Source: Stramenopiles sp. TOSAG23-3
Taxonomy: Eukaryota
DNA: 39,164 bases
Direction: 5' to 3'
Assembly (NCBI GenBank): GCA_900128585.1
Contig: LT642185.1
Coordinates: 1-39,164 of the forward strand
How positions within the stretch are numbered: the first letter of the stretch is position 1; the number at the start of each line of letters is the position of its first letter. The notes below the pieces were generated by a model that searched no databases, was not told where the DNA came from, and saw nothing but the letters and a program-made list of their open reading frames with translations. Both the position numbers and the translations under genes were made by a program. This document shows positions 2,872 through 34,499 of the stretch, one piece after another.

Positions 2872-3497
2872 GGTTGCCTGCCTTTTACTTACTGGGACCC
2901 ACGCCTAACGGTATTCGCGCATACAGTGTAGACACCAACGATTCAAATGCAAAGATAGCAATTTAACGACATCGTAATGGAACTCAAGAATTAACTATTC
3001 TGTTTCATTTCGTTATATTTTTCTATATGTAAATGTTTGTTTAGCTTTTGATTATCGAATATTTGAATTTTGCACGTTTGTTTTATTATTAGTAGTTTTA
3101 TTATTATTTTATACTTGGTAGAATAGTAATCTCTTCTCGCTCCTCTGTGGTGGCCAGAGCAGAGAGGAAGGGAAGAAGAGAAGAAGAAGAAGAAGAAGAA
3201 GAAAAGGAAGAAGAAGAAGAAAAAAAAATAAAAGAAAAAAAAAGAGAAGAAGAAAAATTTTGATGGCCGATGATTGTATGTGATGAAATGAATTTACCAC
3301 ACACCATTTGGTCGCGGTCAGAAATAAATGGTACAGAATAGATCAACAGTAAAGAGTGAGGTGGTATCTATCTCATTTGAATTATTCGGATATTGGTGAA
3401 CTAGAAGTCGTCTATACATAGAGCAGGAAAGGTTTAAGGACCACCTGAGAACAAAAAATTAGAAAACACGGCGATATTGGTATATAGTGTGTGTATT

Positions 3498-4823
3498 ATG
3501 GCGGCTGTTGTAGAAAAACCGGAGCGGAAATTTTTGGTGTCTGTTACTGGCTTTGGGCCGTTTGGGAAAGTCACGTCGAATCCAAGCACTCGTCTCGTCG
3601 AGGGCTTGAAAAAGTTAGAGCACGTTACCAGCACGGTTACTTGGAAATTGAGCAATGCATCGGTCCTAGAAGTGTCAAAAGTTGGGGTAGACTCTGAGCT
3701 AGAGCATATACAGGCCAAAGCGTCGTCGTTGGGGACATATTCTGATCATCGGTTTGTGATCCTACACCTTCACCTTGGCGTGCACGGCGGCGCAACGAAA
3801 ATACACATAGAGCAGCAGGCCTACAACTGCGACGATTTTAGAATTCCCGACCAGCGCGGACTGCAAGTGCGCAACAAAAAAATAGACCCCTCGTTCGGGT
3901 ACGGTGCTTTCCGGACCTCCGTGGACACCCGGAAACTTGTCCGGGATTTAAATCAAGACAGGTATTTTTGTGTCTCGGATGACCCGGGTCGATTTTTGTG
4001 CAACCATGTGTACTTCAAAAGTCTGCAATACTGCGCGGAGAACAAGACCTTCCTGGGGGATGCCAACGAGCACCATAGCCTCTTCGTGCACATTCCCACG
4101 TTTGACGTCATCCCTGAAGAGAAGCAGTTGCAGTTGATCATTACTATGCTCAATCAGGTATCGTCCGATTTTGGAAGGTACAGGAAAACGGGAAGGCCGG
4201 AACCGCTAGCACCTATTGTTGATACCTCTGAATCGGCCTCTTATAAGCCTTCCGTGGCCGTGTTGTCCGGGGCAGAGTTGGTCGAGAATCAAACAGCAAA
4301 TTTTATGAAACTAGGGCTTGGGTACCCAGCGCATTTAGTGCGAGTGGCGGTGCAAATGTTGGTAAACAACAAATACGAGACCGATGCCGACAGTATCGTG
4401 AACTGTTTGTTGAGCTTAGGCGACCATGCCGCGTCAAACATTATCAATTCGAGGGTGAAGAAAAAGATGGTGATTTTGGTCAGACAAGATTTGGCAATGT
4501 CACCTGGAAAAATAGCTGCACAGTGCTGCCATGCGACGCTTGGAAATTACCGAGCACTTCTGCATCAGCACAACCGGACGCTTCGTGGAGACTTGCAGCA
4601 ATGGCAAGCGCAAGGCGAGCCGACTATCATCTTGCAAGTGCCCAGTGCAAACCAATTGACAGCCTTGTGCAGGCAGGCAAATGCCCAACGCATACCCGTC
4701 TATAAGGTGCACGATGCTGGGAAGACGCAAGTCGAAAGCGGTACGTTGACGTGCGCGACTTTGGGACCAGCTGACGACGAGAGCATCGATAAAATTACAG
4801 GTTCGTTGAAATTGTTGCCCTGA
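3498..4823 (+). CDS. PTH2: Pyroglutamyl-peptidase I (C15) + UBA-like linker + peptidyl-tRNA hydrolase type 2 fusion (441 aa from the ATG at 3498)
   Basis: C15 motifs VTGFGPFG..NPS, HLGV, IEQQAYN, DPGRFLCNHVYF and FVHIP. Pth2 motifs KMVILVRQDLAMSPGKIAAQCCHA, DAGKTQV and IDKITGSLKLL. One uninterrupted ORF. Confidence 0.9.
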   Translation: MAAVVEKPERKFLVSVTGFGPFGKVTSNPSTRLVEGLKKLEHVTSTVTWKLSNASVLEVSKVGVDSELEHIQAKASSLGTYSDHRFVILHLHLGVHGGATKIHIEQQAYNCDDFRIPDQRGLQVRNKKIDPSFGYGAFRTSVDTRKLVRDLNQDRYFCVSDDPGRFLCNHVYFKSLQYCAENKTFLGDANEHHSLFVHIPTFDVIPEEKQLQLIITMLNQVSSDFGRYRKTGRPEPLAPIVDTSESASYKPSVAVLSGAELVENQTANFMKLGLGYPAHLVRVAVQMLVNNKYETDADSIVNCLLSLGDHAASNIINSRVKKKMVILVRQDLAMSPGKIAAQCCHATLGNYRALLHQHNRTLRGDLQQWQAQGEPTIILQVPSANQLTALCRQANAQRIPVYKVHDAGKTQVESGTLTCATLGPADDESIDKITGSLKLLP

Positions 4824-4960
4824 AATGAAGAGAGGTGTGCTTTAGACAACTCACATTAACATAAACGCATTAAAAGGTAATAAGAATTCTTAAAAGCTCA
4901 AGGTATTTGTAAGACGTATGGTAGGAAGAGCTCTTACATAGACTGTACACAATATATACG

Positions 4961-5057
4961 TTAAAAAACAAGAAAATTGGCTGTTATTTATAAGTAACTA
5001 AATTTAGCGTCCTCATACCCTAACGTTTTAAATAACAGCCAATTTTCTTGTTTTTAA
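4961..5057. mobile_element. MITE-like element: about 29-bp inverted repeats around a 38-bp core
   Basis: Left arm TTAAAAAACAAGAAAATTGGCTGTTATTTA (4961-4990); right arm TAAATAACAGCCAATTTTCTTGTTTTTAA (5029-5057). Core 4999-5023 recurs exactly, inverted, at 18933-18957. Confidence 0.6.
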
Positions 5058-5150
5058 TCCTAAACTTAACGTAAGTATGATATTTCTTACTTTGTAAATT
5101 GAAAACAGAAATTTTATTGAGACCAACGAGGGAGACATTCTCTATCGCGT

Positions 5151-7997
5151 TTACTTGCCTTGCAAATGTTTCGTTCTTGGATTCCCAGGGCACCCCACTC
5201 CACTCAACAAGTGCCGTCTCCAGCCAGCCTCTCCTGCGGGTTTGACTACAACTTGGCACAGTGGACAGCACCTCTCCATTTGCTTCAACTTTCCTGCGTT
5301 ATCCTTCTTAAACTTATCCCGGTGCTCGCACTCGGTCGTCATATGCTCGTGCAAGCACATGATCTCTACGACTTGCCCACAGAGGCGGCAGCTTGTCAAA
5401 ACAGGGCACTCTTTCCAGTAGTGCATATCTAATAAATCGTCCGTAAAATTGGGGTCGTACCGGTTGCAGAATTGGCAAGTGAAAGGGTCAAGATCAGCCT
5501 CTTCGCTTTCGTCCTGGCCAACGGACATTTCGTTGTTTCGCATCTTACTATTTCCCCCAGCGTTCGAAGGCGACGTGGTTACATTAATATTGATGTTAAT
5601 GTCTCGCCCGTCGGGCCCGGTCACTCGAACTTGCCCCGGCGAACCTCTAACGGGTGAATTGGCCACGTTCCCGCCTCCGCCACCAAGGGCCGTAGCTGCT
5701 TCCCGGTTCACGTTCTCCATCTCTCGGATCTGTTCTCGCCGTTTCTGCTGTTTCCTCTGGCGGTTGTCGTTCTTTGCCTTCGATTTTCCAGGCGGCGCGC
5801 CGCCCGCAGCGGCAAAAGCTGCCCTATACTCCTCTAATTGTTTTTCTCTCAGTCCGCCAAGATACGGCTCTATTTGGTCTCCGCAGGCTTGGTACAGCGC
5901 AACGCACAGCTCTTTTGCGGCAACGCGAACTTCGTTGTTTCCGTGGGCAAACCCGTTGGAGACCTTGATGTGTTCCATAACCGCATCAAGGCTTATCCCC
6001 GACGTTGGCCCGAGACCATACGCCATTACAAGGCTGCGAATCAAACTCAACCTGGCAACTACAGGCTTTTTAGAAGTCATCTGCGACTTCTTCGGTTTCC
6101 GCAATACCATGGACGAAACGTACGGGGGGCCTAGGCATGGGGCCTGCGCCATTACCATAAGCGTGGACGCAGACTCCTGCCGGACGCGAGGGTTTGAATC
6201 ACCAACTTTTTCAACCAACGCAGGCGTAAACATCCCGAGCATGGAGGTAACTTCGCCCCTACGCAGGTCGTGGCAGACCGTTAGGGTCCTTTGCAAGATG
6301 CTAAGGGCGGCGAGGAAGACCTGAGAGACCTTGTCCCTCGCAAACATGTTAAGCATATGCGCGATGGCAGCAAAAATTCCCATGTCTCCTTGCTCGCGGG
6401 CGTGCTTCTCAAGGTCCAAATTGACTTTGTTCATGGCAGCCTCGCGAAGGGCCCATGTCTTGCTGTACAAGCAGGAGGCAACGTACTCTCCAAACAGACG
6501 AATTAAGTCGTCCGCGTCTTTCGTGGCTGCCGCGGACATGGGCTCAGGGTCTGGCAAGTTGTCCGCCCCCGACACACCGCTGAGGGGGTGGGGCCCAGAG
6601 CGCGGGGCCGCCTTGGGCGGCTGCTCGGACATCCCGGCAGCACTCGCTCCGCCAGGCCCCATGGAGCGGGGAGACCTTTCTTTGGGGCGTTGGGCCGGCG
6701 GGCGAGTGGCGCCCTTCACCGGAGACCGGGCAATTAAATCTTTCCCGGGCGGTGGCGCGTTCGGGTCGGCGGGTTTCGCCTGCGGGGCCTCCTGCGCGGG
6801 CTTTGGCCTGCGCTGTTGAATTGGCTGCTGGGGGGATGGCCGCTTCGGTGGTGGCGACTGCGCATGAACGTTGTGAACCTGTGCGCTCGGTCCATTGCTG
6901 CCGCCGCCGATCGGTCGGTCGTCCCGTTGCACCTCGTTCGCACGTCGGTTCTGCAACGGCGTTGGCATGACCACCTGTTGCCCACCCTGAAAACCCTGGG
7001 GGTACTTGTTTGGCGACCCCCCGTTGCCGGTGGCATTGTTGTAGATGGGCTCCATTGGCCTGCGGGCATTGGCTGGCGACGACGCCGCTATCCCGGAGCC
7101 GCGCGGCGGAGGGCCGGCCCCCGCCCCACCAGCGGCTTGGGCCTTCCGCAAGTACTCGTGGAAGGCGGGGATTCTCTGCAACCGATCTTCGATGCCCATC
7201 CTCAGGCGGTCGATCTCCCCTTTGAGCGACTGCGCTACGTCGTAGTCTTCGCGCTGGACGGCAGCGCGCTTCTGGGTGACCATTTTCGCCAGCTGCACGC
7301 CAATGACTTTCAGCTGCTGCTCGACCGCTTTCAGCGATTTTGCCTGCTCGTAGTTTTCTTGGGCAACGCAGTATTGCTTTGCGAGGTTCACTTCACGGAT
7401 CTTTTGCGCGGTGACGTCATCAAAGTTCATGTCAAACGCCAGGTCATCCAAGGCAAGAACCGACTTTTGGCTCATGTGATCCGGCAAGTCTTGCCCCCCG
7501 AGGGCTTTCGGGAGCCGGGTCGTCGGCCCGTCCAAGCCCAGGGCGTGGTCGGCCTCCCCCAACACGTTGATGGCGATCAGGCCGACTTGGTTGTACAGAT
7601 TGTACTTATTGATGTAGCACTTGTGAAGTCGTACCTTGAGAAAGGTGCATTGCGAGTCGACGTAGACGGACTTGAGTTCCCTGGCCCTGTGCCCACTTCG
7701 CTCGTTGTTGTCCAAGGACATGTACCCCAACCGTTTGAACGAGCACTCGGGCAGCGAGTCCGCTTTCCCTACGTATAGCTCCAGCTTGGTCGCAATTTTC
7801 GACTGGTGCGAGAGAAACTGCACCTGCTGAACGCGCACTTTTTTGCCTTTGAAGCTCAAGATAACTTCCTGCGGAAACTCGCAGAACCTCGGCGACAGCC
7901 ACCCTTTTGTGGTCGGCGAGTGAATGTTCAACTCCGCCGCCGGGAACTCTGGGTCTTCCCCAGTACACGAAATGACCGCAAACGTTAGTTTCCCCAT
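5151..7997 (-). CDS. CEP104: Centrosomal/ciliary tip protein CEP104 (FAP256-like)
   Basis: N-terminal jelly-roll (GWLSPRFCEFPQE, LSHQSKI, NERSGHRARELKSV, NLYNQVGLIAINVLG), UVR-like coiled coils, TOG/HEAT region (YSKTWALREAA) and C-terminal Zn fingers (CQFC...LDMHYWKECPVL..C..C). Confidence 0.95.
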   Translation of the reverse strand: MGKLTFAVISCTGEDPEFPAAELNIHSPTTKGWLSPRFCEFPQEVILSFKGKKVRVQQVQFLSHQSKIATKLELYVGKADSLPECSFKRLGYMSLDNNERSGHRARELKSVYVDSQCTFLKVRLHKCYINKYNLYNQVGLIAINVLGEADHALGLDGPTTRLPKALGGQDLPDHMSQKSVLALDDLAFDMNFDDVTAQKIREVNLAKQYCVAQENYEQAKSLKAVEQQLKVIGVQLAKMVTQKRAAVQREDYDVAQSLKGEIDRLRMGIEDRLQRIPAFHEYLRKAQAAGGAGAGPPPRGSGIAASSPANARRPMEPIYNNATGNGGSPNKYPQGFQGGQQVVMPTPLQNRRANEVQRDDRPIGGGSNGPSAQVHNVHAQSPPPKRPSPQQPIQQRRPKPAQEAPQAKPADPNAPPPGKDLIARSPVKGATRPPAQRPKERSPRSMGPGGASAAGMSEQPPKAAPRSGPHPLSGVSGADNLPDPEPMSAAATKDADDLIRLFGEYVASCLYSKTWALREAAMNKVNLDLEKHAREQGDMGIFAAIAHMLNMFARDKVSQVFLAALSILQRTLTVCHDLRRGEVTSMLGMFTPALVEKVGDSNPRVRQESASTLMVMAQAPCLGPPYVSSMVLRKPKKSQMTSKKPVVARLSLIRSLVMAYGLGPTSGISLDAVMEHIKVSNGFAHGNNEVRVAAKELCVALYQACGDQIEPYLGGLREKQLEEYRAAFAAAGGAPPGKSKAKNDNRQRKQQKRREQIREMENVNREAATALGGGGGNVANSPVRGSPGQVRVTGPDGRDINININVTTSPSNAGGNSKMRNNEMSVGQDESEEADLDPFTCQFCNRYDPNFTDDLLDMHYWKECPVLTSCRLCGQVVEIMCLHEHMTTECEHRDKFKKDNAGKLKQMERCCPLCQVVVKPAGEAGWRRHLLSGVGCPGNPRTKHLQGK

Positions 7998-9048: not shown

Positions 9049-10443
9049 CTAAATGACCAATGAATTTTCATCGACTTGTACAACTTCTTCATCCTCCTTT
9101 TCTTCTTCATCGTCGCTTAGCTCTTCTTTGACTTCCAACATTCTCCCCCCTGAACCACCAGACTCCAGTAACGGGTTCATCGTGCCCGCTTCGCCCAGAC
9201 CGGCAAGGGTATCTTTGCTAGAGCCCCTTGAAATCAATTGTTTCAAGCTACTACCAGTCCTGCTAAGGCTTCTGGAAACCGCCTTCATGGATTTCCGTCG
9301 GATTTTCTTCAAATCCAAACCTGCCAATGGGTTCCTCGATGCCTCCCTGTTCAATTCAACAAGACTCTTCCTTCGAAACTTTTCATCGTCGTTCATGAAC
9401 AACTCTATGTTTTTCTTCCTCAACGTGAAAACTTGCTTTTTCCTCGCTTCGATTGCTTCCGTATCGAGATGGTCGAACTCGTAGTACTTCTGGTACGCGA
9501 TGATCAAGTTGTGTAACTCAATCGAGCGCTCGTATGCTTTCCGCCTGGCGTGAAGGTCGCTCTCCTCCTCTACCGTTTTCAAGAGTTCTTCTTGGGATGC
9601 TAACAGAGCGTACACAAGGTTGGCGTCGAACGGCTGTTCTATCTCGAAAGCTAAGGCATCCCCGTTCTTTTCATCCCCTTCTTTGCCCACTCCCGAATCG
9701 CTCGTAAGTTCCACGTACAGCTCTTCCCACGATTTTTCGACGTCGGCGTCTAAGTCTATGTGCACCAGGGGCTCTAACCAAACCATGTCGTCAAAATGAA
9801 TGTCGTCGCTTGCGAAAGAGTCTGCATTGTACTCTTCCTCGACGATGCTGGCAGTGTCTCCCAACATATGTATCCCCAATGCGTCATACGCCTCCACCAT
9901 GAGGGCGCCCCCGCAAAGCGACTTGGAGGCCACTTGATGGCCGACGGCGAACGTTCCCCCCTCGTTTGTAGGCCCAAGGGGCAAAAGGAGCTCCCGAAGG
10001 TGGGCATACGTTCGGTTACGCTTTGCGCCCACGTACGCGTTTCCCAGCGAGCGCACCGCGGCCTCCTCGTACGCAAGCTCGCCGTGACGACCCGCGGATC
10101 GCTGGAACAAGCGAACCTCGGGGTCGACCAACTGGACGTGCCCGAATCGAGGGCTGCCAGCGGCTTGGTTAAGCTCTAAGAGCTTGAACACCTCTTTATC
10201 GGAGTTTTTGCCCGTCTTCACGACGTCTTGCTTTACGACCATCGCTACGTAGTTCCAGTACTCTGCAATTTTCTCTTCCTTTGATTCAACTTGATCAAAG
10301 TTCTCTTCGAAATCCGCCACCTTTAGGAACAGGAGGTCCCCAGTGTTCAGACATTTTGAGATTTCAGCCCATCTAAAATTGTCTTTCCTTTTCATGTTGG
10401 TATCATCCTCACCCCCCCCATCTTTGCAGCAATGGCACCCCAT
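9049..10443 (-). CDS. Putative N-acylated protein with a degenerate permuted papain-like (YiiX/YebB-type NlpC/P60) domain and an acidic tail
   Basis: MGCHCC start; LNTGDLLF, YWNYVAMVV and LCGGALMVEAYDALGI resemble family motifs (TGD.ll, wsHvgmv, FCSELVa.aY..lG). Confidence 0.6.
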   Translation of the reverse strand: MGCHCCKDGGGEDDTNMKRKDNFRWAEISKCLNTGDLLFLKVADFEENFDQVESKEEKIAEYWNYVAMVVKQDVVKTGKNSDKEVFKLLELNQAAGSPRFGHVQLVDPEVRLFQRSAGRHGELAYEEAAVRSLGNAYVGAKRNRTYAHLRELLLPLGPTNEGGTFAVGHQVASKSLCGGALMVEAYDALGIHMLGDTASIVEEEYNADSFASDDIHFDDMVWLEPLVHIDLDADVEKSWEELYVELTSDSGVGKEGDEKNGDALAFEIEQPFDANLVYALLASQEELLKTVEEESDLHARRKAYERSIELHNLIIAYQKYYEFDHLDTEAIEARKKQVFTLRKKNIELFMNDDEKFRRKSLVELNREASRNPLAGLDLKKIRRKSMKAVSRSLSRTGSSLKQLISRGSSKDTLAGLGEAGTMNPLLESGGSGGRMLEVKEELSDDEEEKEDEEVVQVDENSLVI

Positions 10444-11236: not shown

Positions 11237-14050
11237 ATGGCGTTCTTTCCCGTTCAGTTTCTGTGCCTCCTTTTGTGGGCGTTCTCCCTTTCGCACGCGG
11301 GCGCTTCTTCTTGCGAAAGTGCAAACGTTAACGTAACCGTGCTGAAGGGATCTGGCAACGCCATCGACGTGTACTGGGGGGTAAAGAAAAAGGGGGAAAC
11401 GCACGACCAGTTTTACGGCTCGGTAGGATCCAAAGAGATCTGCTTGGCCGGCGGCGTCTACACGATTTTGGGAGAAGCTGGAGGGAATACCCTGGGGTGG
11501 CAGGGGGCAAACCTTTCCATGGTCGACGTGGACGACGGAACAGTTTATTTGAGCGACTGGTTCGGACCTGGCGACGAGAACGATAAGACAACCGAAGTCA
11601 CAATCCCTTGCAGCGTCGGAAAACGGTGGGATTCCGGAAGTGGCGAGTGCGTTGCTTGCAGCGCGGGGAAGTTCGGGATAGGGAAGGGGGACTGCTCGTA
11701 TTCGGTTGCAAACTGCTCTGCGGGGTACTACTGTGGAGGCAGCGGGGGGGCCGCCACGAAATGTCCCTCAGGGAAGTACGGAAATGTGACGGGAAAGTCT
11801 GTCGAGAGTGAGGCTTGCCTGTACAGTTGTGGGGCAAGCACGTATGGGACCGCGGCGGGACAGACGACTGCAAGCGCCGCATGTTCTCCGTGCCCTATCG
11901 GGTTCTTCTGCAGTGGGGGGAGCAATCGTGTTCCATGCCCGGCGGGAAAATGGGGCGCCGTCGCGTCCCAGGCCAGCGAGGCAAATGCGTGCCCAAACGA
12001 TTGCCCTAGCGGAAAGTTCGCGGGCCAGTCGTCCAACAGTGGAAACTCAGCATTGGCAGCGGCGTGCCCTAACGAGTGCCCGAATTCTACGTACGGATCC
12101 GGTGCAGCGAAAGTCAGTCGCCAGGAAGCTTGCACGAGCTGCCCAAGTGGCACGTACGGGTCACTAACTGGGCAATCGAGCGAGGCAAGCGCCTGCACGA
12201 CAGTGTGCCCAAGGGGAAGTTATTGCCCCGGTGGTGGAAAGGTTGTATTTTGCCCTTCGGGCACGTACGGGAATCTATCGAAGGCATCGACGGAACTATC
12301 CGGTTGCCCGGGGAAGTGTCAGGCAGGAAGGTACGGAGCACAGTACACTTTGAGAGTGTCTGGAAAATGCCACAACGCGTTCTCCACAAAGCAAGAGTGC
12401 GGTAGAGTCGCAGTCATCCTGGGCTTGTCAGACACTACTGCCGTTTTTGACGGGATGTCCGGTAGCTCTGATTACCCGACCGGCTGTTACCTAGATGGCA
12501 GCGAGCTGAAGTTCAACGGTGCTGGGAACAACAATGGCGACTGCGCGGACGGCCTTAAGTGCCTTTGCGATGGTTCCGGTGGGAGGACCGTTGAAGAAGC
12601 TTGCAGCGGCCTGTGCCCAGTCGGAAAGTTTGGCTCCGCCACTGGTAAATCGTCCGAAGCGGAGGCGTGCCCAAGTTCGTGCCCCGCGGGGAAAACGGGA
12701 AGGAACAGCACGATTGGGATGCTACGCAGCAATGAAAGCAATGCTTGCGTTTGTAAGTCCCTGGCGTGCAACAACCTTTGCCCTGCTGGGCGGTTTGGTA
12801 CCGGGGTGTTGCCAATGCAGACGAACGGTTGCCCAGGTTGCTCTTCTGGAAAGTATACAATGGCGTATGAAAAGAAAGAGTTCGGATCGTGCAGTCTCCA
12901 GGTGCAATCATTGGAAGAATGCACGCGTGCTGCTCAGTTTGCCGGGTACAGCAGCCACACGGCGGAGGACGACAACCAGCACGATAAGGGGCATATCCCA
13001 ACTGGTTGCTATTTTCTACCTGGCACGAACAAGCTGAAGTTCAACGGGGGCAAGAACAACTGGGGGTACTGCTCGTCGAACGCCGTGTGCATATGCAACG
13101 AAGAGGCGAAATTAGTAAGCTCGGCGTGCCCGAATGTTTGCAGCAGCGGCAAGTACGGCACGTCAAAGGGCCAGGTTTCGGAATCGTCGGCCTGCCCGAA
13201 TGGGTGCCCGTTGGGTCAGACGGCCCGACGATCTAAAACTGGTGCCACGACCGAGACAGCCGCGTGCGTCGTGTGCCCGAGTGGGAAGTACGGCTCAAGC
13301 CCCGGGGAGTGCAGCAACTGCCCCAAGGGATTGGCGTTCCAAGGCAACGCAGGAAAATTTTGCGAAGAGTGCACTGGAGACAAGTACGCAAACATTGCAG
13401 GGATGAGCCGCTGCAAGGTGTGCCCGGAGGGGAAGGTTGCTGTCACGGAGGAATTCGACGTAATCGCTCTTCGTAAGCAGAATTTGACCGTGTCGGGGAA
13501 AGCGTTGCAAACGGGGTGCCGGGACGACCTTGGATATGTCACCTACCTTGCCATAGCAGCTGCCGCTTTGGTTTGTTTCTGTTTGTTTTGTTTCTGCAAA
13601 AGCCAACAGGGCAAGGATGTCAGTACAAGGCTGAGAGATTCGTTTGGTGGAACGATGGAAATGACCAAGCACGTTGCTGGAGCCGACAATTTTTCCGCCG
13701 TGGGAATTGTTTCTACCGAAGACCTGAGGGTGCGCAGTCATACGACCGAAAACCGCGTAAATAAGCTGTCTGGAAACATTCGCCGATTGAAGCAATGGAA
13801 GGAGGTTAAAATTAACTTTGTAGCAAGTACCAACGAGAACGACCTGGTTGTCTCCCTCGACGCATTGCTGGATTTTTTCCTCCAGCATCCTGATTTTCGT
13901 GTCAAGCATGAGGAACTGGATAAAATGAAGGGGCAAAAGGTGACGACCTTGAATCTGCATTCCGTGGCGAGTGATGGTTTGAACCACTGGTCCGGCGCCG
14001 TCGAATCGAAATGGAGGCAGGTCATTGGCAATGCGTGCGTCCTTGCATAA
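11237..14050 (+). CDS. Cysteine-rich type I membrane protein (GCC2/GCC3, ephrin-receptor-like repeats)
   Basis: Signal peptide MAFFPVQFLCLLLWAFSLSHAGA; many C-P-x-G-x-Y/F repeats; TM helix YVTYLAIAAAALVCFCLFCFC; about 150-aa cytoplasmic tail. Confidence 0.88.
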   Translation: MAFFPVQFLCLLLWAFSLSHAGASSCESANVNVTVLKGSGNAIDVYWGVKKKGETHDQFYGSVGSKEICLAGGVYTILGEAGGNTLGWQGANLSMVDVDDGTVYLSDWFGPGDENDKTTEVTIPCSVGKRWDSGSGECVACSAGKFGIGKGDCSYSVANCSAGYYCGGSGGAATKCPSGKYGNVTGKSVESEACLYSCGASTYGTAAGQTTASAACSPCPIGFFCSGGSNRVPCPAGKWGAVASQASEANACPNDCPSGKFAGQSSNSGNSALAAACPNECPNSTYGSGAAKVSRQEACTSCPSGTYGSLTGQSSEASACTTVCPRGSYCPGGGKVVFCPSGTYGNLSKASTELSGCPGKCQAGRYGAQYTLRVSGKCHNAFSTKQECGRVAVILGLSDTTAVFDGMSGSSDYPTGCYLDGSELKFNGAGNNNGDCADGLKCLCDGSGGRTVEEACSGLCPVGKFGSATGKSSEAEACPSSCPAGKTGRNSTIGMLRSNESNACVCKSLACNNLCPAGRFGTGVLPMQTNGCPGCSSGKYTMAYEKKEFGSCSLQVQSLEECTRAAQFAGYSSHTAEDDNQHDKGHIPTGCYFLPGTNKLKFNGGKNNWGYCSSNAVCICNEEAKLVSSACPNVCSSGKYGTSKGQVSESSACPNGCPLGQTARRSKTGATTETAACVVCPSGKYGSSPGECSNCPKGLAFQGNAGKFCEECTGDKYANIAGMSRCKVCPEGKVAVTEEFDVIALRKQNLTVSGKALQTGCRDDLGYVTYLAIAAAALVCFCLFCFCKSQQGKDVSTRLRDSFGGTMEMTKHVAGADNFSAVGIVSTEDLRVRSHTTENRVNKLSGNIRRLKQWKEVKINFVASTNENDLVVSLDALLDFFLQHPDFRVKHEELDKMKGQKVTTLNLHSVASDGLNHWSGAVESKWRQVIGNACVLA

Positions 14051-18815: not shown

Positions 18816-18932
18816 AATAATTTCTGCGTTGCAACTCTAAAAATTTTGATTTTCTCATTACGCTTACACTGTTCGAGTTGTATTTATTTTCGCAGTACAT
18901 TAATTTTAATCACTTACAGAACCAAATTAGGA

Positions 18933-19092
18933 TTAGGGTATGAGGACGCTAAATTTAATTATACTTAAAATTGGCTTGGCTGTTATTTAAGTTCTTGTTT
19001 TTAAAAAAACAAAATATATAGTATGTTTTAAGACTCTCATTTTAAATCCAATACTAACTTCAAATATGTTTTTAATAACAGCCAATTTTCTT
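18933..19092. mobile_element. Composite copy of the dispersed repeat family (module C + inverted-repeat arm + intron-like module A + inverted-repeat arm)
   Basis: 18933-18957 is the reverse complement of 4999-5023. AAAATTGGCTTGGCTGTTATTTA (18967-18989) and AATAACAGCCAATTTTCTT (19074-19092) match the arms at 4961-5057. 19020-19065 matches 1609-1653. Confidence 0.65.
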
Positions 19093-19155
19093 CTTGTTCT
19101 CAAAAAAAGATAATTCTGACCATATCAGTATCATAATCATAAGTCTCTTTAATTT

Positions 19156-32552: not shown

Positions 32553-34499
32553 ATGGCTACTTTGGCGTCTCCAGAGAAAAACGGCGACGCGTTGCCGTTA
32601 TACGTGTCGCCTGCGGCGATTAAATTTAAGGCGAGCACGTTAGCGGTTATGAAAGGAACGTACAAGCGGCGTGCGATCGTTCGATGCATCGAGCATTTGC
32701 CTGTGCCGTACGTTGTAGAAATTCCTCCTAGCTCCAGGTTCACGATTACGACAACGAACAGAAAGGAGGGGGACCCGGACGAGTGGCGGCGGGGGATAAT
32801 TGATTGTGGCATGGACGGGATCCCTCTCGTGATTTCTTACGAGCACCCGACGTCGGGCGAAGGGGACTACATATACGACAATTTTCAAACCGTCGTGTAC
32901 ATTCACACCCCAAACCACACCCTTCCAGTTTTTATAAAAGCGGTACGGAACGACCAGGAAGAGGCCTTTTGCCCCAGCAGACTCCCGACGCCTGTGCGGC
33001 CAGCGCACTCCGACTTTCCGCAAGTGCGCTTAGTGTCTGCGACTACCTCTCTGATCGCCGGGTTCCACGACGAAGACTCGATTGAATTTTCCCCAACTAG
33101 CAAGGCACGCACGTGGCTCGAAGGGAAGCATGGTGAGGGAGACTTTGAGACGGATTTGCCGGAATACCCAACCTCTCCCGTCGAATCCCCGGGCCGGAGG
33201 GAAGAGAACGAGGCCAGCAAGTTTGACAACGACGAGCTGGAATTTTACAGCAAATTGATGGGGGGGGAGAAAGACGATGGAGACAGCACTGGTCAGAACC
33301 AGGCGTTCCCGAACATTCAAGGGCCGCGGAAGAAGAAAAGCGTGGCCAACGTCCCGACGGAGGAGAAGACGGTAGAAACCTTTGAGGACGCTAAGGAGAT
33401 GATAAAGCGGATGCGCATGGGCCGAACGTCAAGTGTGCGACCGTTGCAGTCCACGCTTGCGGGGACTGGGAGTAGCATTGTTGCCCGGGCCGGGGAATCG
33501 TCCCGGCTCTTGCCCTCTCGCGGAGTAGGGGATAGAAAATTGGGCTCCGGAAACGAGAAGCATACGAAGGACGAAATAAATTTTTACAAGAACTACATCG
33601 TCCGGAAGGAGCAGGAGGTAGAGAGAAAGAAACTGTTCAGCAACCCGTACGACGCGTCCTCGCAGCGGGAGAGGGCCAAAAAGATAGACGCTAAGATTGC
33701 GAAAGATTACCCGCAACTGGCGAAAACGAAGCGATGGAACGATGGCATGAACGGAAAGATAAAGCCAAAGGCCCAGAAGCGCTTCACCCATACCCGCATT
33801 GTTTTGAGTAGTTCGTCCGACGAAGGCGAGGCGTCCCAGGAGGAGGAAGACGAGGAGGGGGAGGAGGCCGATTCCAGCAGAGGGGACTTGAACAGCAGCG
33901 TCGACTCCAGGGTTTCTGACCAGCAACTGTCGACCGCCATGTCGGCCACGAACGGGCTTCCGGGAAGGGAAACGGGGGATGTGTTGTTCTCCGAACACTA
34001 CGCCGAGGAGCACAAGAAGCGGCTCCTAACATGGTCCAGCGATGACGACAGCGACGACGACATTGTTGGAGGGGGCAGTGTCGTGAGGGGGGGTGGGACA
34101 CGGGATGGGCCTACGCAGAGGGTGAACATGAGCGCGGACGAACACCAGTTTTACAAAACCATTACATCCATGAGCGACGTGCTGTCGCCTAGGAGTGCGT
34201 ACGAGAACTCACCAAGGCACGACGACGCCAGCCGGTTCAGCCAGACCGTTGGCGGCGGTGCGATAACCGGGGAGGAGGACGATGCTGCCGAGAAGGAGCT
34301 CGATCAGGCCAGCCAGGCCGAGTACGAAGAGAGGTTGCGCGCCGCACTCTCCGACGTGACCCTCGGCCAAGCGTCCCGTACTCGTGGGCCGAAAAGGGGG
34401 TCTTCCCGGCCACGATTGAAGTCGGAGGGAAGAAAGCGAAAGCCTCGGAGGCATGTCCCGAAAACCGAAAACATTCTGAACGTGAAGGACTGGTTGTAG
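32553..34499 (+). CDS. Protein with an N-terminal ASH/PapD-like Ig domain and a long disordered tail
   Basis: LYVSPAAIKF...VEIPPSSRFTI...IDCGM...ISYEHP...VYIHT...LPVFIKA resembles ASH domains of ciliary proteins. The rest is low-complexity and acidic/basic. Confidence 0.7.
   Translation: MATLASPEKNGDALPLYVSPAAIKFKASTLAVMKGTYKRRAIVRCIEHLPVPYVVEIPPSSRFTITTTNRKEGDPDEWRRGIIDCGMDGIPLVISYEHPTSGEGDYIYDNFQTVVYIHTPNHTLPVFIKAVRNDQEEAFCPSRLPTPVRPAHSDFPQVRLVSATTSLIAGFHDEDSIEFSPTSKARTWLEGKHGEGDFETDLPEYPTSPVESPGRREENEASKFDNDELEFYSKLMGGEKDDGDSTGQNQAFPNIQGPRKKKSVANVPTEEKTVETFEDAKEMIKRMRMGRTSSVRPLQSTLAGTGSSIVARAGESSRLLPSRGVGDRKLGSGNEKHTKDEINFYKNYIVRKEQEVERKKLFSNPYDASSQRERAKKIDAKIAKDYPQLAKTKRWNDGMNGKIKPKAQKRFTHTRIVLSSSSDEGEASQEEEDEEGEEADSSRGDLNSSVDSRVSDQQLSTAMSATNGLPGRETGDVLFSEHYAEEHKKRLLTWSSDDDSDDDIVGGGSVVRGGGTRDGPTQRVNMSADEHQFYKTITSMSDVLSPRSAYENSPRHDDASRFSQTVGGGAITGEEDDAAEKELDQASQAEYEERLRAALSDVTLGQASRTRGPKRGSSRPRLKSEGRKRKPRRHVPKTENILNVKDWL

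Follow-up and report, generated by a model that had tools for sequence, protein, structure and literature searches.

The stretch of DNA analysed in this study (the window) comprises 39,164 nucleotides of contig LT642185.1 from the assembly GCA_900128585.1 of Stramenopiles sp. TOSAG23-3. The gene under study lies on its forward strand and encodes a protein in which a pyroglutamyl peptidase I (PGP-I) domain of the Peptidase_C15 family (C15) is followed by a diverged ubiquitin-associated (UBA)-like segment and a peptidyl-tRNA hydrolase domain of the PTH2 family. According to the list of open reading frames (ORFs) and the translation, its 441-codon frame is uninterrupted from the ATG at 3498 to the TGA at 4821-4823, and the identical 441-aa protein is recorded from five contigs of four source collections. 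The ATG at 3498 is the first in the stretch covered by RNA-library contigs, positions 3410-3497 being without a visible ATG. Three ORFs on the opposite strand inside the gene (94, 66 and 76 codons) are without signs of being genes. The locus is thus shown to be one real gene, belonging to a flagellated protist of marine origin, and it encodes a soluble three-part protein, with the following parts, all on the + strand:

3410..3497, +: minimum 5' untranslated region, from a contig of run X2 covering 3410-3806 (the RNA status of X2 being a guess)
3498..4823, +: complete, intron-free coding sequence of 441 codons plus the TGA stop (ORF list, translation, RNA-library contigs)
3528..4181, +: pyroglutamyl peptidase I (Peptidase_C15) domain, residues 11-228 (Pfam, structure alignment, AlphaFold2 model)
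3810-3812, +: codon of Glu105 in the motif IEQQAYN, residues 104-110
3999-4001, +: codon of Cys168 in the motif GRFLCN, residues 164-169
4089-4091, +: codon of His198 in the motif FVHIP, residues 196-200
4182..4268, +: low-confidence spacer, residues 229-257 (model confidence below 50 at residues 242-256; variable in length and sequence across the family)
4269..4415, +: diverged UBA-like three-helix bundle, residues 258-306 (AlphaFold2 models, family linker profile)
Residues 269-285, +: FMKLGLGYPAHLVRVAV, in the linker
Residues 298-305, +: DSIVNCLL, in the linker
4461..4820, +: peptidyl-tRNA hydrolase PTH2 domain, residues 322-441 (Pfam, structure alignment, AlphaFold2 model)
4509-4511, +: codon of Lys338 in the motif GKIAAQ, residues 337-342
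4713-4715, +: codon of Asp406 in the motif DAGKTQV, residues 406-412
4824..4889, +: minimum 3' untranslated region, from a contig of run X8 (4451-4889, metatranscriptome) and one of run X10 (4700-4850, oligo-dT)

The Pfam family PF01470 matches residues 14-201 of the protein with 66.2 bits (cut-off 22.7; E 5.4e-18). In the alignments with solved structures, Glu105 and Cys168 fall on Glu79 and Cys142 of P. furiosus PCP (1iof), and His198 falls on the histidine of the FVHLP motif in 6ltq. These three positions correspond to the catalytic triad of C15, for whose residue numbers the literature searched supplied no confirmation; the triad is invariant in the aligned family members (51/51). The AlphaFold2 (AF2) model of the full protein was built on the alignment of these 51 sequences and has a mean predicted local distance difference test score (pLDDT) of 88.3. 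Its C15 domain, with a pLDDT mostly above 90, matches more than 25 PGP-I chains in Foldseek (E 1e-15 to 5e-12; template-modelling score, TMt, 0.71-0.80). Profile, triad and fold all place the domain in the C15 family, and peptidase activity is predicted.

At the other end of the protein, the Pfam family PF01981 matches residues 323-440 over profile positions 2-115 of 115, with 129.6 bits (cut-off 23; E 8.5e-38); neither this match nor that of Peptidase_C15 is due to chance. Lys338 and Asp406 align on Lys18 and Asp86 of Sulfolobus solfataricus Pth2 (1xty), which are reportedly the catalytic residues of that structure, the literature searched having supplied no confirmation. The modelled domain superimposes on 1xty with a TMt of 0.98 and a root-mean-square deviation (rmsd) of 0.7 Å, and on 1q7s with a TMt of 0.96. 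The residues R329, D331, G337, K338, Q342, H345, D406, A407, G408 and T410 are canonical or nearly so, as is also the case in 40 of the 51 members. By profile, Lys/Asp motifs and fold this is a PTH2 domain, for which hydrolase activity is likewise predicted.

A membrane anchor was not found, the highest mean Kyte-Doolittle hydropathy over 19 residues being 1.02 across the 441-aa protein, and the N-terminus leads directly into the C15 domain. The initial annotation of this stretch had described one intron-free ORF with both domains, an intact C15 triad in the three motifs listed above, intact Pth2 motifs and the absence of an N-terminal anchor, and on all of these points the analysis came to the same result, with no internal stop in the frame and with the key residues of both enzymes aligned on those of solved structures.

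The linker between the two enzymes

In the full AF2 model, helices are predicted at residues 258-270, 278-290 and 297-306 with a pLDDT of 80-86, and the bundle formed by them is flanked by disordered stretches at residues 242-256 and 310-316. A model of the linker alone, based on an alignment of 31 family linkers, again has three helices and reaches a pLDDT of 85.6. The profile of these 31 linkers matches solved UBA domains, including those of USP5 (3.1e-19), USP13 (1.7e-15), RAD23 (~1e-8) and others, and among the 51 aligned members Pfam finds UBA_7 in 18 (best 1.7e-13) and UBA in seven (E<=0.01). Judged by these profile matches, the linker is a UBA domain at the level of the family.

For the window protein itself, the hydrophobic-Gly-aromatic loop after helix 1 is L274-G275-Y276, in the alignment column where the family has MGF or LGF, and the glycine at the position of G275 is found in 49 of the 51 members. 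Against a family profile built without it, the linker of the window protein scores 7.4 bits, the best of 1000 shuffles reaching 6.6. The label UBA-like is given to this linker because of the family-level homology, the predicted three-helix bundle, the position between the same two domains and the weak sequence score taken together, and the segment of residues 258-306 is UBA-derived. The helical, UBA-like nature of the linker had been suggested from the first reading of the sequence. It is supported at the level of the family by the homology to UBA domains. For the window protein three helices are predicted, but the linker's own sequence gives only the weak score above and has no Pfam match to UBA.

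RNA-library contigs and genomic surroundings

Contigs assembled from four public runs were placed on positions 3300-5000 of the window. Runs X6, X8 and X10 are recorded as RNA, while X2 is an RNA-Seq library of metagenomic source whose RNA status is a guess. The following contigs are colinear with the fusion gene:

3410-3806, 3854-4004 and 4025-4259: run X2
4126-4552: run X6 (metatranscriptome), 427 nt
4153-4303, 4512-4662 and 4700-4850: run X10 (oligo-dT)
4451-4889: run X8 (metatranscriptome)

All these pieces align to the fusion gene with zero joints and zero indels. Together the four runs cover 3410-4889 except for 3807-3853, and the X6 contig runs from the end of C15 through the complete linker into PTH2, of which it includes the first 30 residues. 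The contigs are consistent with an intron-free single message; as RNA libraries can contain DNA, such assembled contigs are not proof of a single transcript. Of the transcript across both domains that would be expected from the initial annotation, the junction from the C15 end to the PTH2 start is represented without joints, but no single contig spans the entire ORF. T>C differences were observed at 4289 (X6 and X10) and at 4795 (X8) in RNA-library contigs of different studies, each at low depth, and these are probably strain variation.

It could be argued that the fusion is an artefact, two adjacent genes having been joined by misassembly or by read-through caused by a sequencing error. No evidence in support of this was found, the sole gap being the uncovered positions 3807-3853 and the lack of an RNA contig across the entire ORF. 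On the other hand, the frame is continuous, the identical protein comes from five contigs of four source collections, an RNA-library contig bridges the junction, and the architecture recurs in 53 distant representatives (see below). An artefact is close to refuted.

The window is eukaryotic, with long intron-free ORFs at 45-60% G+C and spacers at 25-35% G+C. The neighbours of the fusion gene are as follows:

1681-2871, -: EamA-type transporter gene
5151-7997, -: full CEP104 homologue (N-terminal domain, TOG domain and zinc finger) in a single ORF of 948 codons

The presence of the CEP104 homologue indicates a flagellated or ciliated cell. Further genes of the window encode ankyrin-repeat proteins, a LipB-type lipoyl transferase, a Pin1-type prolyl isomerase and RuvBL1. 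The best named matches of RuvBL1 are from oomycetes, Tribonema and haptophytes (79-81%), and a EukProt entry matches it at 95%; by this gene the organism is probably a stramenopile or a member of a neighbouring group. No tRNA genes and no Rfam families were found in the window, and the long ORFs at 9049-10443 (-; 464 codons), 11237-14050 (+; 937 codons) and 32553-34499 (+; 648 codons) have no Pfam family at E<=0.001.

The spacers next to the fusion gene contain repeats. On the side of the EamA transporter gene, where the divergent spacer measures 626 bp, there is a purine-rich (GAA)n/(A)n microsatellite at 3150-3260. In the spacer between the convergent fusion and CEP104 genes, there is a 37-nt inverted repeat with arms at 4957-4993 and 5026-5062 that are 89% complementary. 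Another convergent-gene spacer (18816-19155) contains a related copy at about 18930-19095, oriented the other way. The summed depth of RNA-library contigs over the arms is very high, reaching 1709 in X6, and loose ends run into other sequence; the element looks like a dispersed repeat resembling a miniature inverted-repeat transposable element or like a shared 3'-end element.

The fusion family and its variants

A word-indexed search returned 48 relatives, ten of which had both domains on scanning, one of the ten being the window's own cluster. The profile of those ten was run against 1.84 billion cluster representatives and gave 18,756 matches at E<=0.001. Among the best 150 of these 18,756 representatives (50% identity), 53 have both domains, 91 have C15 only and six have PTH2 only; the C15 domain comes first in all 53 fused representatives. 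The family alignment consists of 51 of 80 two-domain proteins, most near-identical cluster members and fragments having been omitted. Both Pfam families are matched by all 51, at 25-42% identity to the window protein.

Named members are limited to entries of about 950-1015 aa from Ectocarpus spp. and Pylaiella littoralis, labelled 'unnamed protein product'; the C15-UBA-PTH2 architecture is already present, unannotated, in public protein databases (NCBI brown-alga proteomes). A literature search pairing both enzyme names or both Pfam names found no description of the fusion, most subscription journals lying outside its reach, and the ESM Atlas contained neither a usable match to the window protein nor a model of it. 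The three domains are all well known; their combination is uncharacterised, recurrent in protist data and, as far as the literature was searched, undescribed. The statement in the initial annotation that this architecture was not known from characterised proteins agrees with the literature found, but the architecture is not unique, since it occurs in at least 53 clusters at 50% identity and, without annotation, in brown algae.

Both halves of the architecture are also found in other settings. UBA-PTH2 proteins without C15 (P0028, which also has a UIM, P0212 and P0216) occur in metagenome and transcriptome collections, with UBA_7 matches of 1.2e-12 to 2.1e-05. C15 domains were found with a weak PUB match and zf-CW (P0110), as three tandem copies in one protein of 512 aa (P0084), and with an amidohydrolase in P0007, whose C15 domain is 45% identical to that of the window and which shares a short motif after it. 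Other C15 fusions of the same subfamily have as partners isochorismatase and a 2OG oxygenase (P0030, P0035-P0038), malic enzyme (P0043) or SET and zf-MYND (P0137).

A FastTree tree was computed from 197 C15 domains (62 fused, 135 not), from which P0050-P0083 (near-identical cluster members or fragments), P0002 and rows with less than 80% profile coverage had been dropped. The fused state is clustered in this tree, requiring 19 changes compared with 52.6 in shuffles, and none of 500 shuffles was as low. The fused C15 domains do not form one clade, the starred branches forcing at least six changes. Neither one origin nor several origins of the fusion are claimed, because the FastTree branches are long and many of the 'C15-only' rows are possibly fragments.

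The variety of partners bears on whether the domains cooperate at all. PGP-I and a UBA-PTH2 protein, both housekeeping hydrolases, might have been joined in a protist ancestor and kept as a harmless fusion or for co-expression, without mechanistic coupling and with each domain acting on its usual substrates. The joining of C15 domains of the same subfamily to many unrelated partners (P0007, P0030, P0035-P0038, P0043, P0137) or to copies of themselves (P0084) is in favour of such a fusion, as is the disordered and variable inter-domain spacer. Moreover, the predicted template-modelling score (pTM) of the whole model is 0.64 compared with a pLDDT of 88, suggesting that the modelled domains have no fixed arrangement. 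However, the order of the domains is constant in the 53 fused representatives, whose identity to the window protein is only 25-42%, and none of the 51 aligned members has lost the C15 triad; on these two grounds long-term selection on the combination can be argued. An uncoupled fusion is unlikely on balance, although it has a real chance of being the right explanation. If the domains do work independently, this would be an ordinary protist gene fusion, such domain fusions being common in protists.

The PTH2 domain is less constant than the peptidase. Its lysine is Lys in 40 and its aspartate Asp in 43 of the 51 members, with both kept in 40. The other 11 have Ala, Thr, Gln or Glu in place of the lysine and a DAG.T motif that is either degenerate or unaligned, and they retain the C15 triad; the C-terminal part of some of these rows is possibly miscalled owing to introns. 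The 11 variants are nine long brown-alga-type forms (P0127, P0128, P0132, P0133, P0135, P0140, P0145, P0146 and P0152) together with P0125 and P0126; just two of the 11, P0127 and P0128, come from named brown algae. In these variants the PTH2 domain may be a pseudo-enzyme. Judging from the aligned residues, it is the peptidase that stays constant across the family, and catalysis by PTH2 is apparently dispensable in at least one lineage.

Such a pattern could be explained if the conserved task of the fusion were that of C15. PGP-I would then be targeted to the proteasome by the UBA, through ubiquitin, and by the PTH2 fold, through ubiquitin-like (UBL) domains of the Rad23/Dsk2 type, and would deblock peptides starting with a cyclised Gln or Glu, whereas PTH2 catalysis would be dispensable. 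In addition to the invariant triad and the 11 lysine variants, a precedent comes from yeast, whose Pth2 interacts with the UBL domains of both Rad23 and Dsk2 and docks Dsk2, so that ubiquitylated precursors are transferred to the proteasome (PMC4092868; bioRxiv 10.64898/2026.09.28.754956; PMC13328587). UBL binding by the PTH2 domain of the window protein is putative, by analogy with yeast. Against such a task, the PTH2 motif residues that were checked are all canonical or close to it, both in the window protein and in 40 of the 51 members, which implies selection on PTH2 catalysis in most lineages. The adaptor function is rather unlikely, about one chance in a handful.

Proposed role and comparison with known systems

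The preferred reading, drawn from the domain content and given a probability of roughly 0.4, is that the protein serves protein quality control as a soluble, cytosolic Pth2 that is associated with ubiquitin and to which a pyroglutamyl peptidase is tethered. The UBA, and possibly the PTH2 fold too, would recruit the protein to ubiquitylated clients or to ubiquitin-shuttle complexes, where stalled or aborted peptidyl-tRNA would be freed of its tRNA by the PTH2 domain. In the same peptide pool, the tethered C15 domain would take off N-terminal pyroglutamate (pGlu) caps, allowing exopeptidases to finish, so that both ends of a doomed chain would be opened to further degradation. C15 and PTH2 would in this way share a pathway, that of protein and peptide quality control, and not one chemical substrate. 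The UBA-PTH2 module, which is also found alone, would represent a ubiquitin-associated, cytosolic form of Pth2.

Several observations weigh against a role of this kind. The pathway itself is read from the domain content. C15 in these protists is fused to many unrelated partners, and fusion by itself says little about a shared pathway. As 11 of the 51 members are without the PTH2 lysine, PTH2 catalysis is not essential to whatever maintains the fusion. A single transcript is not provable from contigs of metatranscriptome libraries, which may include DNA. Other difficulties concern the linker. That of the window protein has no Pfam match to UBA or UBA_7 at E<=1, and it is unmatched by the family profile once its three closest relatives are also excluded. 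Foldseek found nothing significant for the linker-only model, the best match being the UBA of EDD (E 2.2), and the Z scores of this model in VIA-align (4.3-6.5) are within the noise range for helical bundles: UBAP1 (6.0), cIAP1 (5.7), USP5 (5.0) and the UBA of Dsk2 (4.3) were among the matches, together with Ube2K UBA regions and CUE domains, and unrelated helical proteins gave equal Z. Since the UBA-like segment of the window protein is very diverged, has no Pfam match and has no significant structural matches, its binding of ubiquitin may have been lost.

A different function had been proposed in the initial annotation, namely that the fusion may couple the recycling of tRNA to the removal of pGlu-blocked adducts or peptides, with a ubiquitin link. 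On this reading, a single adduct, either pGlu-tRNA(Gln) or a peptidyl-tRNA capped by pGlu, would be the substrate of both C15 and PTH2. This is chemically possible: N-terminal Gln cyclises spontaneously, Pth enzymes accept N-blocked aminoacyl-tRNA, and both catalytic centres are intact in the window protein. However, the PTH2 domain alone should hydrolyse N-blocked aminoacyl-tRNA and thereby release pGlu from the tRNA, and C15 enzymes require a pGlu-X bond. The C15 domain is not needed for such a salvage function, nor is the UBA explained by it; the conserved UBA points instead to ubiquitylated, protein-level clients. The PTH2 lysine is also lost in 11 of the 51 members that keep the fusion, while the C15 triad is kept in all 51. 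The absence of tRNA genes and Rfam families from the window is a further point, of little weight in a eukaryote. As Pth2 alone should suffice, the UBA is conserved and 11 of 51 members have no PTH2 lysine, the salvage of pGlu adducts is less favoured and must be regarded as very unlikely.

A more specific proposal is that the family could be dedicated to ubiquitin-guided 'end-deblocking' in quality control at the ribosome or during translation. Ubiquitin on a stalled nascent chain would be recognised by the UBA, PTH2 would sever this chain from the tRNA, and C15 would remove the pGlu cap from the same chain or from pGlu-tRNA. This proposal is a long shot. If it were true, cytosolic PGP-I, whose cellular role has long been unclear, would gain a defined place in proteostasis, and protists would gain a Vms1-independent release of ubiquitylated peptidyl-tRNA. 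Even without it, the physiological role of cytosolic PGP-I and the reason for the contact of yeast Pth2 with ubiquitin and the proteasome are both poorly defined. The fusion, which recurs in many protists and in which PGP-I is tied covalently to UBA-Pth2, suggests that these activities may meet in ubiquitin-linked clean-up of proteins and peptides. The brown-alga variants, with the peptidase kept and the hydrolase lysine lost, provide a natural experiment on the catalytic versus the scaffolding role of the Pth2 fold.

Compared with free PGP-I (6ltq of Fervidobacterium, 1iof of P. furiosus and 1aug of Bacillus amyloliquefaciens; MEROPS C15), the window protein shares the fold (Foldseek E 1e-15 to 1e-13), has the Glu-Cys-His triad at aligned positions and retains the GFxPFG, NPS and GRFLCN-type motifs. 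However, its C15 domain is just 17-26% identical to the PGP-I structures and has insertions at residues 41-49 and 78-85. It forms the N-terminal part of a larger protein (441 aa), whereas PGP-I is a free enzyme of about 210 aa.

Other proteins share the order of the domains in whole or in part. The brown-alga C15-UBA-PTH2-like proteins have the same order as the window protein, and the C15 triad is kept in both. On the other hand, they contain long low-complexity inserts, they have Thr or Ala instead of the PTH2 lysine, and their DAG.T motif is degenerate; judging from these residues, their PTH2-like domain is probably not a hydrolase. In the best local BLASTP alignments they are 24-36% identical to the window protein over 21-33% of its length. 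The uncharacterised proteins P0028, P0212 and P0216 have the UBA followed by PTH2 as in the window protein, without C15, although two of them, P0212 (201 aa) and P0216 (174 aa), may be incomplete, each representing part of a longer gene.

Over its whole length, the PTH2 domain is 42% identical to S. solfataricus Pth2 (1xty) and 37% identical to human PTRH2/Bit1 (1q7s), with an rmsd of 0.7-1.4 Å. Yeast Pth2 carries an N-terminal membrane anchor (PMC13328587). The window protein is without the N-terminal anchor of yeast and human Pth2 and has a UBA-type domain and a peptidase in front of the hydrolase instead. In its proposed link to the ubiquitin system, the family of the window protein parallels yeast Pth2 with its binding of the UBL domains of Rad23 and Dsk2.

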